Of a DNA stretch of 64,000 bases, positions 48,794-60,868 are shown piece after piece. Location: assembly GCA_943787795.1 (NCBI GenBank), contig CALSNU010000003.1:352001-416000 (forward strand), written 5' to 3'. Each line of letters opens with the position of its first letter. The stretch's first letter is position 1. A model generated the notes under the pieces. The model was not told the DNA's origin, ran no database searches, and worked only from the letters and a program-made list of their open reading frames with translations. A program made the position numbers and the translations under genes. This stretch comes from an uncultured bacterium (GTDB lineage Bacteria; Planctomycetota; UBA1135; GCA-002686595).

Positions 48794-50425
48794 CTACTGC
48801 CCTGGGAGGTTGCGGAGCTGCTCGGTGAGGAGCGCCGCCCGCTGGGCGCGCCGCTGCTGGGCCTGCTCCGCGGTGTGGATGATCGCCTGTTGTGGCCCGA
48901 GGGCCTCCCACTCGGGCCGGAGCAAGGCCCAGTGCGCTCTGTCAGGATCGTCCTTGGCGATCCCGCTCAGCCAGCGTCCAACCAGCGCCTCGGCCCCGGC
49001 CGGGTCGCCAAAGCGGCGCGTCATGGCGTCGGCGAGCCAGGGGAGGCAGGCGGCCTCTTCACCGGCCGGCAGGAGCCCCTCGGCGGCCGCCAGGCGTAGA
49101 TCCGCCGGTGCCCCGGCTCCGTTGAAGGCCTCGAAGAGGACCTCGACGGGGACGGCATGGGTCCGGCCCAGACCGCGCACGAGGGCCACGCGGACCTCGT
49201 GGGGCGGGGTCTCGCCCAGGCGTGCGATCAGCGGAGCCCCGGCGCTCCCCGGCGCCACCGAGGCCAACGCCTCGGCTGCGGCCCCGGCCACACCGTCGCT
49301 GGCGTCGTACAGGGCACGCTGGAGGCTCGCCGCGGCGCCCCCGCCTCGTGGCCCCATGCGCTCCAGGACCTGGACCACGTGGAGTCGGACGTACTCGTCG
49401 TCGTCCTCGAGAGCGGCGCCCAGCTCGACCGCGGCCCAGGGGCCGAGGCGCGAGAGGATGAAGCGCGCGTCGTCCACGCCCCGGAGCTGGAAGTGCTCCC
49501 CTGAGAGGTCAGAGATCAGCCGCCACACCTCGGCGCGCAGCGCAGCAGGGGCCACCGTGTCACGGCTCTGCTTGCCCGCGGCCCAGTCGGCCATCAAGCG
49601 GTCCGCGTCCTCCGCGGTGACGTCCTCGCGGCCGGTGGCGGCGCGAACGACGTCGTAGAGCTGCTGGTTGGCCGAGCCGGAGGCCTCCGTCCCGGCGCTG
49701 GCGATGGCGGCCAGCGTGCGGAGCCCGCTCAGGTTCCCGTGCGCGGCCAGGGTTCGCGCCGCCCAGACCAGCGCCAGGCTGTCCTGCTCGTACTTCAGTC
49801 GTCGAAGGAGCGCGGTGACCTCGGGGCCGCTCCCCTCCAGCTCCGCCGCGGGTACGAGGGCCCAGGAGGCATAGGCGCGGACGCTCGGGTCATCGTGGTC
49901 GGCGGTCAACTCGGTCAGCGCGGCCGAGGTGGGAGCGCTCGGCGCCGCCTGTGCGAACTGGGCCAGGACCCTCAGGTCCTCGGGGGCGCGCGCGGGGTCG
50001 CGGAGGCCAGCAGCGAGCACCGGCGCGAGCTCATCCCTCGACGCGACCACGTCAGCCGTGGCGGTCTCGAGGTATCTGCCGTCGCTCAGGACCATGCCCA
50101 CGAGGCCGTCGCGGAGCTCGACCAGCCCCGGGTCGAGGCTCGGGGCCTGATCGGCGGACACGGCGTCCTCCTCGGCCTGGGCGGGCGGCCCGGGAGCCTC
50201 CTCGATCTCACCGGGCATCAGGCCTCGGTTGCCCCTCAGCTCGCGGGCGCTGAGGACGCCCTCGCGGCGGCTGACCCCCAGCTCGGAGAGGGTCGCGTCG
50301 AGGACATCGCGCGTGGGTCGGGGGGAGGGCTCGGCGGCGCTGGAGGCCTCCCCGGTCGGGTCAGCCTCCCCGGGACTGCAGGAACCCAGGAGCGAGAGAA
50401 TGGCCAGCGCCGCGAGGGATCTCAT
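48794..50425 (-). CDS. HEAT-repeat lipoprotein
   Basis: Lipobox LLGS-C; HEAT-like repeats (DDPSVRAYASWAL, DDDEYVRLHVVQVL, VAGAAAEAL, EVRVALVRGLG). Confidence 0.75.
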   Translation of the reverse strand: MRSLAALAILSLLGSCSPGEADPTGEASSAAEPSPRPTRDVLDATLSELGVSRREGVLSARELRGNRGLMPGEIEEAPGPPAQAEEDAVSADQAPSLDPGLVELRDGLVGMVLSDGRYLETATADVVASRDELAPVLAAGLRDPARAPEDLRVLAQFAQAAPSAPTSAALTELTADHDDPSVRAYASWALVPAAELEGSGPEVTALLRRLKYEQDSLALVWAARTLAAHGNLSGLRTLAAIASAGTEASGSANQQLYDVVRAATGREDVTAEDADRLMADWAAGKQSRDTVAPAALRAEVWRLISDLSGEHFQLRGVDDARFILSRLGPWAAVELGAALEDDDEYVRLHVVQVLERMGPRGGGAAASLQRALYDASDGVAGAAAEALASVAPGSAGAPLIARLGETPPHEVRVALVRGLGRTHAVPVEVLFEAFNGAGAPADLRLAAAEGLLPAGEEAACLPWLADAMTRRFGDPAGAEALVGRWLSGIAKDDPDRAHWALLRPEWEALGPQQAIIHTAEQAQQRRAQRAALLTEQLRNLPGQ

Positions 50426-51468
50426 CGGGGGTCCACCGTCACCCGGTGGACAAGCTCGGCGTCCTCGAAGGGGTCGGTGACCGTGTCGATCTCTCGCGCG
50501 ATGCCCGTCTCGGGGTCGCGATAGTAGGGCGAGCGCTTGTAGACGAGGACCGCCTCGACGCCGCCGGCCGCGTCGGGGTCATCGATGGCGAGCGTACGGC
50601 TCTCGCCGAAGTGCAGGAGGGTGCTCTCGATGTCCTTCTCGTGCCGGTAGGGGTCGCGGATCCGGTGCAGGTGTCGCCACGGGCCGCCGCCGGCGGCGAC
50701 GCCGGCCTCGTTCAGCGTGTCCGCGTCACCGGGGAGCGGGCGCCACCAGATATCGGAGGCGCGGCTGCGCTCGTCGGTGGGGTAGGAGTGCCCGCCACGG
50801 ACGTTGGCGATGGTGACCGACGGGTCACCCGCGTCATCCCGCGCGCCCATGAACGTCACGGCGGAGCGCACCATCTCGATGTAGTGTCCGCCGGGCATGG
50901 TGTGGAAGCGCCCGCTCTTCGGGGTGCCGTCGCGATAGGGCATGTGGCACTCCATGCAGCCCTCGTTGTGCTCGGCGAACGGGGTCGCCTTCCACTGCTG
51001 GACGGTCTTGTGCTGGTCGTGGCACCCCGAACACATCTCGACCCGCTGCAGCTCACGCCGGGTGGTGGGCTGGCAGGCGGCGCGCGGGTTGTCGATCTTC
51101 CCGGCCATTTTCCCGTCCGGGAGGAGGTGGCAGGTGAGGCAGTCGACGCCCTCTGCTCGTCGCGCGGAGCGGGGCAGGACGCGCTCGCCAAGCCCGGTCT
51201 CGAAGATGGGCCGCGGGGCGTGGCAGTCGATGCAGTCCTTGTTGGCGAACTGGTCGGACTGGACCCGCACGTCCTCGTTGAGCCACGAGTTCGCGTGGGG
51301 TGAAGAGGCCCACTCGTCCCAGATCTGACTGTGGCACTCCCGGCACTGCTCCGACGAGACCCACTCGGCGGGGGTCTGCGCGCTCGCCGTCTCCTCCGGG
51401 GTCCCGATGAGGGCGGAGAAGAACCAGCTCGCGAGGACGAGGACGACGATACCGAGGGCGATACGCAT
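50422..51468 (-). CDS. Pentaheme c-type cytochrome (c554/c552-like)
   Basis: N-terminal signal/anchor and five CxxCH motifs (CRECH, CIDCH, CLTCH, CSGCH, CMECH); W.SSPHA and GHSYPT motifs. Confidence 0.88.
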   Translation of the reverse strand: MRIALGIVVLVLASWFFSALIGTPEETASAQTPAEWVSSEQCRECHSQIWDEWASSPHANSWLNEDVRVQSDQFANKDCIDCHAPRPIFETGLGERVLPRSARRAEGVDCLTCHLLPDGKMAGKIDNPRAACQPTTRRELQRVEMCSGCHDQHKTVQQWKATPFAEHNEGCMECHMPYRDGTPKSGRFHTMPGGHYIEMVRSAVTFMGARDDAGDPSVTIANVRGGHSYPTDERSRASDIWWRPLPGDADTLNEAGVAAGGGPWRHLHRIRDPYRHEKDIESTLLHFGESRTLAIDDPDAAGGVEAVLVYKRSPYYRDPETGIAREIDTVTDPFEDAELVHRVTVDPR

Positions 51469-51667
51469 GGGATTCCTGTAGCCCAAGGGTACGCCCCGGG
51501 TCACGCGGTGAAAGGGAAGACATGTACGCCTCGTGGCCAGGGGTGCGTCACGGCGCCGCTGACCTCCCCGCGGCGCCGCCCTCCTGCGGGGAGTTCGACA
51601 GCTAGCTTGAGGGTCCGGCGAAGGCGCAGCAGCGGAGCCGCGGGGTCGACCGAGCCTGCCGCGCCCG

Positions 51668-59077: not shown

Positions 59078-60694
59078 ATGAGAATTCTCCCCATCCTCGC
59101 AGCTGGCCTGCTCGCCTCCTCGCTCTCGTCCAGCGCCGCAGCTCAGTGCCCCGGTTCACAGCCTGGCGCTGACGTCATCGTTGGCCAGATCCCGAACATC
59201 TCGAACTACGGGCAGCTGAACGGCATGGCCGCTTACGCGCTGGGGACCACGTCCTGCAACGTGGGAGACCAGGAGCTGCTCTGGTTCGCGAACAACACGA
59301 ACCACCCGGTCATCGGGCAGAACATCTACCGCCTCGAGAACGGGCGGTTCGAGCAGGTCGGGATGAGCTGGCTGAAGCACGGCTTCACCGCGCTGCAGCA
59401 GAACCTCTGCTGTAACTGCAACAGCTCCGGCACCGGCTCGCGCCTCGGTGTTGGGTGCTCGGATCCGTACAGCTCCGGCCTCAACGGTTCGCAGAGTGGC
59501 CTCGGCCCGAAGTTCCAGGTCAACGCCTTCACCGGCGCGTTCAACTACCCGTTCGCCCAGCAGGGCCAGACGGGCGACCGGATCTTCAAGCGCATCCAGG
59601 TCCCGGTGGACGACGTGCTCGCGTCTCAGCACCCGACGGCCCGCTACTTCGGTGAGGCCCAGTACATCGCCCCGGACGACGCGGCGGCCGGGAACGGCTT
59701 CAACAACGTCTCCTGGTGCAACCTCAACCGTCCGCAGTCCGGCACGAGCCTCAGCATCGGCGGCGGTACGAACCGCGAGCAGGCTGCGATCCGGGCCTGG
59801 GCGGTCTACGAGCCGAACGCCACCGTCACCGACGTCAACGTCCCCGGTGAGGGTCAGTTCGTTCTGGGTCAGAACGTCATCGATCTGGGCAACGGCACCT
59901 GGCGCTACGAGTTCGCGATCTTCAACAACAACAGCCACTTCAGCGGCGAGTCCTTCTCCGTGCCCGTCGGCACCGGTTCGACTCTCCTCGACGTCGGCAT
60001 GTCCTTCCCGCACTACCACTCGGGCGAGCCGTACACCAACACGGCCTGGACCGGGACGCAGGCGGGCGGCGCGATCACCTGGAGCACCGAGGCCTTCGCG
60101 GTGAACGAGAACGCCAACGCGCTCCGCTGGGGAACGACCTACAGCTTCTGGTTCACCTCCAACGGTGAGCCGACGGCTGGCACCGCCACGCTCGGCCTCT
60201 TCCGCCCGGGCAACCCTGGCGACCAGCAGGTCTCAATCCTGGTCCCTGGCGACCCCTCGGGCAGCGGCGCCGTCATCACCAGCTACTGCGACGCCAACCC
60301 GAACTCCACCGCGGTGGCCGGTGATATCACCGCCAGCAACGTGGATCAGTCCGCTCGTACCATGGAACTCGAAGCGAGCAACCTCCCGGCGAACTCCAAC
60401 GGCTTCTTCATCTCCTCGCTGGATCAGGCCTTCGTGGCCGGCGCCGGCGGCAGCGCGGGCAACCTCTGCCTCGGCGGCAGCATCGGCCGCGGCGTCGCGG
60501 GTGGGATCAAGTCCTCCGGGAGCACCGGGGCCTTCTCCGGCACCGTTGATCTGGACGCCATCCCCACGGGGAACGGCAGCATGTCGGCCATGACGGGGCA
60601 GACCTGGTACTTCCAGGCCTGGCACCGTGACAGCCTCATCCCCGGCTTCACCACGTCGAACTTCACCGACGGCGTGAGCGTCCTGTTCTTCTAA
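59078..60694 (+). CDS. Secreted Cys-containing protein: putative lysyl-oxidase-like N-terminal domain, middle beta domain, conserved C-terminal domain
   Basis: Signal peptide (…SSAAAQ); strongly biased codon usage; LOX-like motifs and C-terminal YC.ANPNST…NLCLGG.IGR…WYFQAWHRD…SNFTDG (see findings). Confidence 0.8.
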   Translation: MRILPILAAGLLASSLSSSAAAQCPGSQPGADVIVGQIPNISNYGQLNGMAAYALGTTSCNVGDQELLWFANNTNHPVIGQNIYRLENGRFEQVGMSWLKHGFTALQQNLCCNCNSSGTGSRLGVGCSDPYSSGLNGSQSGLGPKFQVNAFTGAFNYPFAQQGQTGDRIFKRIQVPVDDVLASQHPTARYFGEAQYIAPDDAAAGNGFNNVSWCNLNRPQSGTSLSIGGGTNREQAAIRAWAVYEPNATVTDVNVPGEGQFVLGQNVIDLGNGTWRYEFAIFNNNSHFSGESFSVPVGTGSTLLDVGMSFPHYHSGEPYTNTAWTGTQAGGAITWSTEAFAVNENANALRWGTTYSFWFTSNGEPTAGTATLGLFRPGNPGDQQVSILVPGDPSGSGAVITSYCDANPNSTAVAGDITASNVDQSARTMELEASNLPANSNGFFISSLDQAFVAGAGGSAGNLCLGGSIGRGVAGGIKSSGSTGAFSGTVDLDAIPTGNGSMSAMTGQTWYFQAWHRDSLIPGFTTSNFTDGVSVLFF

Positions 60695-60713
60695 GAGCCG
60701 CTCCGGAGACTCG

Positions 60714-60748
60714 GCGCCTCGCCCTCCCGCTCGCGGGGGGCGAGGCGC
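60714..60748 (+). terminator. Terminator-like hairpin after the secreted protein gene
   Basis: GCGCCTCGCCCTCCCGC / GCGGGGGGCGAGGCGC long stem about 20 nt after TAA; short U tract. Confidence 0.6.
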
Positions 60749-60868
60749 TTCCATAGGCGCCCCTCGGCCGCGCTAGTGCCCGGTCCCGGTCCGCCCGACG
60801 GAGCGGAGCGAGGATTCGGGCTCCCTACTCGTCGCCGCTCGCCCGCAGTGACTATCCTGCTGCCGATC

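Follow-up and report, generated by a model that had tools for sequence, protein, structure and literature searches.

Can an exported protein that has the lysine and tyrosine of the lysyl oxidase (LOX) cofactor in place, and a single histidine where LOX has its HxHxH triad, still build a quinone and oxidise amines? The question is raised by a gene in the window, by which we mean the whole 64,000-nucleotide stretch of planctomycete DNA analysed here. A preliminary description, made from the sequence, had proposed a secreted protein of remote LOX fold that may form an LTQ-like cofactor at a rearranged metal site. All nine motifs that it listed are present in the translation, in order and at the residue numbers given (GTTSCNVGD at residues 56-64, nucleotides 59243-59269; IYRL at 83-86; CCNC at 111-114; Y131 at 59468-59470; IQVPVDDV at 173-180; RYFGEAQYIAP at 189-199; NNVSW at 209-213, ending at 59716), and the spacing of 31 residues from Lys to Tyr is confirmed, compared with 35 in human LOX (K320/Y355, PMC4448552). 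The motif set lies beyond chance, since its residues are near-invariant in a large family and the predicted fold matches LOXL2. The description was thus right on the fold and the residues, but its interval, 59165..59722, covers the LOX-like domain only of a gene that runs from 59078 to 60694 (Table 1), and it missed a second domain, copies of the protein that have lost Lys and Tyr while keeping both histidines, and a polyferredoxin-TPR partner.

Table 1. Positions in the window of the gene, its predicted parts and the downstream hairpin
Feature	Position	Strand	Basis
Whole gene, putative exported LOX-fold protein	59078..60694	+	ORF of 538 aa; homologs match over full length
Sec-type signal peptide, residues 1-22, ending AAA	59078..59143	+	Read from sequence
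Predicted lysyl-oxidase-fold domain (domain 1), about residues 29-245	59162..59812	+	Predicted model; LOXL2 546-762 (5ZE3) best match; collinear profile alignment
H76, remaining His in HxHxH region, predicted metal ligand	59303..59305	+	Conservation, 332/336
K100 (LTQ-lysine position) and H101 (new His, predicted metal ligand)	59375..59380	+	Conservation; LOX alignment
C127-S-D129-P-Y131, with Y131 at the LTQ-tyrosine position	59456..59470	+	Aligned to GWxDxY of LOX
Obligatory Ig-like beta-sandwich domain (domain 2), residues 246-391	59813..60250	+	Co-occurrence; predicted docking; fold matches
C-terminal domain, likely sorting or anchoring	60272..60691	+	Common to 84 ORFs of the genome; no Pfam match
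GC-rich hairpin 3' of the stop codon	60713..60749 (approx.)	+	z -2.8; 2/200 shuffles equally good

As read from translations, a threonine-aldolase-like gene flanks the gene on one side and malate dehydrogenase and fumarase genes on the other. Elsewhere in the window, the translation of an ORF on the minus strand (50422-51504) contains several CxxCH motifs and is multihaem cytochrome c-like; it lies beside a HEAT-repeat-like ORF. The downstream hairpin of the preliminary description is real, and the terminator scan called no plus-strand terminator at its position (about 60713-60749). The codon bias described as strong is present and is better graded as moderate to strong, with C-ending codons at the 98th percentile and GC3 at the 82nd among 2241 filtered ORFs of the genome. 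The sequencing runs that contain the DNA of the window are marine. In one RNA library (X18), two contigs from a strain 95-98% identical span 59087-60628, with the flanks represented by short pieces; they lend weak support to transcription of the gene, as contigs cannot rank expression, and contigs from two other libraries (X15, X16) span gene and flanks alike and are uninformative on expression level.

A hydrophobic N-terminal stretch is present in 214 of 226 Met-starting homologs and a Tat-like motif in none of the 226, so that metal and cofactor would have to be added after export. The C-terminal domain, of about 140 residues and ending WxFQAWHRD...SNFTDG, is within 15 residues of the ORF's own stop codon in 81 of its 84 copies in the genome, and is likely a sorting or anchoring domain, so far unnamed.

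Structure prediction and Foldseek on the domain agree with the LOX-fold claim. An AlphaFold model of residues 24-391 (120 alignment rows, pLDDT 97.6, pTM 0.94) consists of two beta domains, and domain 1 modelled alone (residues 27-245) also has a pLDDT of 97.6. With the single-domain model, Foldseek places human LOXL2 at the top (E 3.7e-4, probability 1.0, TM 0.45; next entry 3.7e-2), and in a second structure search of 48161 chains LOXL2 546-762 is the sole match with Z >= 8 (Z 9.4, rmsd 3.8, 164 residues aligned; next 7.6). The single-domain model was required in Foldseek, where the two-domain model returned generic Ig matches and LOXL2 was not listed; the domain 1 part of the two-domain model also has human LOXL2 as its best match. 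Runners-up in the structure search are GH2 beta-galactosidase domains, described as LOXL2's own nearest structure (PMC5899467). As a canonical control we used a profile of 16 LOX domains from Planctomycetota, HxHxH being complete in all 16, which finds 5ZE3 at E 1e-33. Profile-profile alignment to it is collinear over 143-148 columns, at a low probability of 11-36% compared with 0.09% for a reversed profile and 0.5% for domain 2, and it brings K100, F103, C127, D129, Y131, D32 and N209/N210 into register with LOX counterparts; H76 aligns within the HxHxH region in an ambiguous register. At a structural identity to LOXL2 of 9-10%, domain 1 is predicted to be a remote relative with the fold of the LOX catalytic domain.

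What is shared with LOX (PF01186; LOXL2 5ZE3; Haloterrigena turkmenica LOX) is the predicted fold across the whole catalytic domain, secretion, the LTQ Lys and Tyr, and the order and register of D-x-I-V, N-x-G, Y-R-L, K-x2-F, G-C/W-x-D-x-Y and NN. In contrast to LOX, HxHxH is absent and its segment, N61-Y84, has about 10 residues fewer than in LOXL2 (23 aa versus 33), a new His follows the Lys, about 35 residues are inserted after the Tyr, domain 2 is obligatory, and there is no PF01186 score: a match was found neither for the gene at E <= 10, nor among 42 family proteins scanned, nor in the 85% complete genome. The calcium site of LOXL2 is given as D549, L550, E722, D724, N727 and N728 (PMC5899467); D32 (333/336), N209 and N210 lie in register with it, and E722/D724 have no clear counterpart. 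The protein is predicted to work like lysyl oxidase yet is not a PF01186 member, as both the HMM score and HxHxH fail. The prokaryotic LOX survey used PF01186; the accessible part of its text describes a widely conserved His core and does not mention Planctomycetes (PMC4448552).

Among near homologs (at least 40% identity; 332 of 354 rows full-length, reduced at 90% to n = 292), H76 is present in 290, K100 in 286, H101 in 290 and Y131 in 286. A distant set was drawn from 32 regions, mostly weaker matches of the genome search, in which 41 ORFs matched, 28 of them at 25-36% identity; of these 28, K100 is kept in 27, H101 in 28, Y131 in 27 and H76 in 26. Pooled, the Lys and Tyr whose invariance the preliminary description had wanted checked are near-invariant rather than variable (K100 324/337, Y131 323/337), and the two histidines are likewise retained (H76 332/336, H101 334/337), together with C127 (337/337), D129 (331/337) and, near-invariantly, four cysteines. 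The proposed reduction of the HxHxH triad holds throughout the near homologs, every one of the 292 lacking HxH in residues 62-84.

In the pooled 337 sequences K100 and Y131 are both lost in 12, K100 alone in one and Y131 alone in two. The double loss takes 8 changes on a FastTree tree from which the two columns were left out, and independent pairs favour joint loss 7:0 (sign test, p ~0.016). All 12 sequences retain H76 and H101. These copies tend to lose S59, I79, Y196 and other residues too, so that the joint loss indicates a shared function and not a bond. K100 and Y131 thus appear, from the alignment, to share a function that some members have given up without losing the histidines and cysteines. 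Copies without K and Y that keep both His include L130:1656-3344, L129:2757-4661, L113:1288-3063 and L025:3375-5138, as well as P0122, P0131, P0158, P0160, P0169 and P0258; some stand in tandem with intact ones, and the L130 locus has four genes in a row. They are possibly copper-binding or non-catalytic paralogs, and would serve as natural controls. Elsewhere H76 is replaced though K and Y are kept, by Tyr in L117 (1143-3077) and L118 (876-3065) and by Lys in two near homologs, while L131 (506-2848) keeps K and Y with H76 and H101 both missing.

Known LTQ and TPQ sites use three histidines. In LOXL2, the zinc or copper ligands are given as H626, H628, H630 and Y689 (PMC5899467), and A654 and F656 are described as adjoining Y689 (PMC9659206). 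H101 and F103 occupy the sequence positions of A654, the residue after the Lys, and F656, and H101 is by its position a plausible replacement ligand. Among the conserved residues of homologs we found no third metal ligand and no third invariant His. H314 of domain 2 was rejected as a candidate, being present in 283 of 292 near homologs but in 1 of 28 distant ones, and having a loop whose predicted contacts are residues 93 and 170-171, not the active site. M72 was likewise rejected, being found in 20 of 28 distant homologs and not in near ones.

Of 350 sequences with domain 1, 342 also have domain 2, and the eight without it are mostly partial matches or short records. Predicted docking of the two domains scores 0.97, compared with 0.00 for the best of three controls. 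Of 157 solved complexes 116 attain the mark, as do 2 of 215 mismatched pairs, counts that are approximate here because we supplied the alignment ourselves and included a zinc rider. Docking runs have at least 98% of their contacts in common, with a pLDDT of at least 95 for the docked partner. The predicted interface (residues 80-98, 144-152, 169-171, 195-211 and 236-246) excludes H76, K100, H101, F103 and Y131, so domain 2 is predicted to dock on domain 1 away from H76, K100, H101 and Y131. Domain 2 has no Pfam match; among known structures it matches YcnI, pilins and adaptins about equally well (Z 9.1-9.5). Although YcnI/DUF1775 provides the top rows (Z 9.5 and 9.3, rmsd 2.8, 105-109 residues aligned), domain 2 differs from that copper-binding domain in having no His conserved across the family, and the resemblance is probably a generic Ig-like match.

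The family to which the protein belongs is large: clustering at 90% leaves 2767 homologs, and at 50% identity there are 2213 clusters. The expectation that it would be annotated as hypothetical was correct: sequence searches of Pfam, NCBIfam and the PDB gave nothing useful and no named family, and in the ESM Atlas the matches were all hypothetical clusters, under 0.9. Among the best 120 of the 2767, the best 150 of the 2213 and the genome loci, no sequence bridges to HxHxH. The genome itself holds three paralogs, all with H76, K100, H101, D129 and Y131. The family is found, with at most four of its candidates scored per genome, in 60 of 301 sampled Planctomycetota genomes. Canonical LOX is found in 15, three genomes holding both. 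The canonical HxHxH domains include five copies in one genome (G125; L013, L018-L021), and G183, G216 and G263 are among the other genomes noted. In a second phylum, whose sampling was centred on a genome titled Polarisedimenticolaceae and which we take to be Acidobacteriota, 15 of 201 sampled genomes carry the family. One member (P0106) is labelled dinoflagellate and is 58% identical to the bacterial domain described here, probably through contamination, and another (P0122) ends in a PEP-utiliser domain and is possibly a chimeric assembly. In the literature covered, we found no paper on the family or on its pairing with the partner described next.

Clustering of the neighbours at 79 family loci shows that, beyond the synteny of close kin, one gene recurs, in 7 loci of different taxa; no conserved operon beyond this partner was found at the 79 family loci or at 20 partner loci. 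The gene encodes a membrane polyferredoxin with C-terminal TPRs, in which Fer4_5 is above cut-off in 6 of 6. Its best NCBIfam match, NapH/MauN TIGR02163, stays below cut-off (57-72 bits versus 213 in the three scanned), and it has no name in the Atlas. In the same 301 Planctomycetota genomes the partner is found, at E <= 1e-60, in 45, all of them among the 60 with the family. In the second phylum 14 of 201 genomes have it, all 14 among the 15 with the family. In the second phylum 13 of the 14 partners are on the contig of the family gene, within about 4 kb. In Planctomycetota at least 16 of the 45 are adjacent to it, distant subfamilies included, 14 of these coming from loci chosen partly for adjacency and 2 from coordinates. 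Absences match as well: three genomes of the same order as the source organism (G208, G119, G138) lack both, two of them holding only remote ferredoxins (E 1e-18 or weaker), and in two taxonomic families (f24, f25) the genomes with the LOX-like gene and those with the partner coincide, 3 of 10 in one and 3 of 6 in the other. Kin are not independent, but the two genes lie next to each other in two phyla and are absent together within taxonomic families, so that the link exceeds shared ancestry. Among the 15 genomes with canonical LOX, none has the partner.

The partner is not universally needed, as 15 of the 60 family genomes lack it: 13 fall in three whole taxonomic families (f63 with seven, f82 with four, f21 with two), and the others are G177 and G242. 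Four family loci from f63 and f21 (L104, L106, L107, L127; partner absent) have an extra N-terminal region of about 230 residues without a Pfam match, and N-terminal regions of similar size also occur in some near homologs. As members in the partner-less genomes still keep K, H, H and Y, it might be argued that the protein is a LOX-like oxidase that processes itself, with a third ligand yet to be found and the partner linked otherwise, for example through disulfide formation or the removal of H2O2 or aldehyde. The four near-invariant cysteines are in keeping with this, as is an archaeal LOX described as refolding to active enzyme with Cu alone (PMC6452851). However, canonical LOX, which likewise contains Cys and produces H2O2, does without the partner in all 15 genomes of this sample; no third His is invariant, and M72 is seen in 20 of 28 distant homologs and not in near ones. 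We consider self-processing improbable.

In 26 aligned partners the cysteines and H23/H29/H84 do not vary, and a PxEPSE loop is present. By a crude hydropathy method, most have four segments ahead of the clusters, and in 16 of the 26 the number behind them is odd, so that the TPRs would lie in the periplasm. The four hydrophobic segments, two Cys motifs and two 4Fe-4S motifs are as in NapH/MauN and CcoG, whereas a first motif CGWxCH, an invariant His pair in helix 1, the PxEPSE loop, extra helices and the C-terminal TPRs set the partner apart from them. In this genome the partner (C1:1074762-1077042, L163) is not adjacent to the three paralogs and reads in two frames, with a break after about residue 135-142 of a homolog; five close relatives are intact, and an assembly error is plausible, the alternative being a recent break of the gene. 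Of the known relatives, NapH is described as delivering electrons from menaquinol to a periplasmic enzyme, and CcoG as reducing Cu(II) for cuproenzyme assembly (PMC8456105).

The activity of CcoG brings up a reading without any amine oxidation, in which a modified Y131, with or without K100, and the two His hold Cu at the surface, as in MopE, CorA or MbnP, and the partner is a CcoG-like reductase for uptake. MopE* and CorA are described as binding Cu through two His, a protein-derived kynurenine and water (PMC11951088), and the survival of both His in all 12 copies without K and Y is what copper capture would lead one to expect. It would also lead one to expect copper genes nearby, but in clusters read by eye no copper transporter or chaperone recurs near the 79 family loci or the 20 partner loci. 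Moreover, catalysis is the better explanation for so strict a conservation of precisely the LTQ residues, and fusions to redox enzymes are hard to place in such a scheme. Capture of copper therefore strikes us as a rather poor prospect.

The fusions have their own bearing on function. A PQQ glucose/sorbosone dehydrogenase domain is fused in 7 of 42 scanned proteins, mostly long ones, and CxxCH outside the core occurs in 20 of 292 near homologs; 16 CxxCH members inspected by eye have mono- or di-haem class I cytochrome c-like domains, with Pfam matches for two. Three of 13 scanned CxxCH members have no PQQ domain match. A di-haem module with motifs about 110 residues apart, with or without the PQQ dehydrogenase domain, is fused in P0153, P0134, P0141, P0145, L050 and L078. 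Such proteins could be taken for respiratory amine dehydrogenases, in which the same K-Y quinone would be re-oxidised not by O2 but by way of cytochrome c and the polyferredoxin, with the electrons passing to the quinone pool. Besides the haem and PQQ fusions, including those haem members without a PQQ match, the nearness of the partner to NapH/MauN speaks for this, mauN being located in methylamine dehydrogenase clusters. Yet most members have no haem domain, and where cytochromes are present they often accompany the PQQ domain, which may be what they serve; the C-terminal domain shared with so many ORFs of the genome suggests export beyond the inner membrane, and one partner per genome for several paralogs is an awkward arrangement for a respiratory chain. 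We regard a dehydrogenase of this kind as unlikely, while giving it some weight.

Longer members are also fused to galactose-binding-like, Ig, PKD and dockerin domains. This context, and the likeness of domain 2 to pilin and adhesin folds, would suit a non-catalytic surface or adhesion module whose conserved residues are structural. Under that assumption, joint loss of K and Y with Cys and His intact would be unexpected, and so would the link to an Fe-S membrane protein, which makes a purely structural role very hard to credit.

We favour instead, at roughly even chances, an exported amine-oxidising enzyme of LOX fold, with Cu at H76/H101 and an LTQ-type quinone formed from K100 and Y131, matured with electrons from the membrane Fe-S partner. 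The direction of electron flow and the membrane topology of the partner are proposed by analogy with NapH and CcoG and from hydropathy. A partner acting in maturation fits best because the site is short of a full His set and a single partner serves several Sec-exported paralogs. The protein would be exported unfolded via Sec and be held in the periplasm by the TPR region of the partner; electrons from quinol or cytoplasmic ferredoxin would then yield Cu(I), or else promote the activation of O2 at the under-coordinated metal. Y131 would be oxygenated and K100 would then add to give the LTQ-type quinone, after which the C-terminal domain would sort the mature enzyme to the surface, where primary amines or protein lysines may be converted to aldehydes. 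One partner gene could serve several paralogs, three in this genome, as expected of a maturation factor.

In its dedicated Fe-S partner the system would differ from LOX, where LTQ formation is described as autocatalytic with Cu and O2 (PMC11951088). Parallels may be found in the TTQ and CTQ systems (MADH-MauG, LodA-LodB, GoxA-GoxB) and in MbnP-MbnH, where an exported protein with a residue-derived cofactor is linked to a redox partner, the logic that we infer here. Those systems use tryptophan and dihaem or flavin maturases, however, whereas the present one would combine Lys and Tyr of a LOX fold with a membrane polyferredoxin. Tentatively, and with somewhat less assurance than an even chance would warrant, we propose a second lineage of LTQ-type quinoproteins, in which a two-His site replaces the three-His self-processing site and the cofactor is built or recycled by an Fe-S protein; it would be the first tyrosine-derived quinone wired to membrane electron transport.

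In the account of PMC11951088, as far as its accessible text goes, LTQ is listed for lysyl oxidase alone and no structure has the mature cofactor. A bacterial family of more than 2000 clusters in which the Lys/Tyr pair goes with another metal site, and which offers natural variants without K and Y and a candidate partner, would open LTQ biogenesis to experiment in tractable proteins and reveal which copper ligands it needs. A function would also be assigned to one of the many orphan NapH/CcoG-like proteins. If our reading is true, this LTQ-type lineage is commoner than canonical LOX in the sampled Planctomycetota, by the genome counts above, and it would point to oxidation of amines or protein lysines at the cell surface by marine Planctomycetota and Acidobacteriota.
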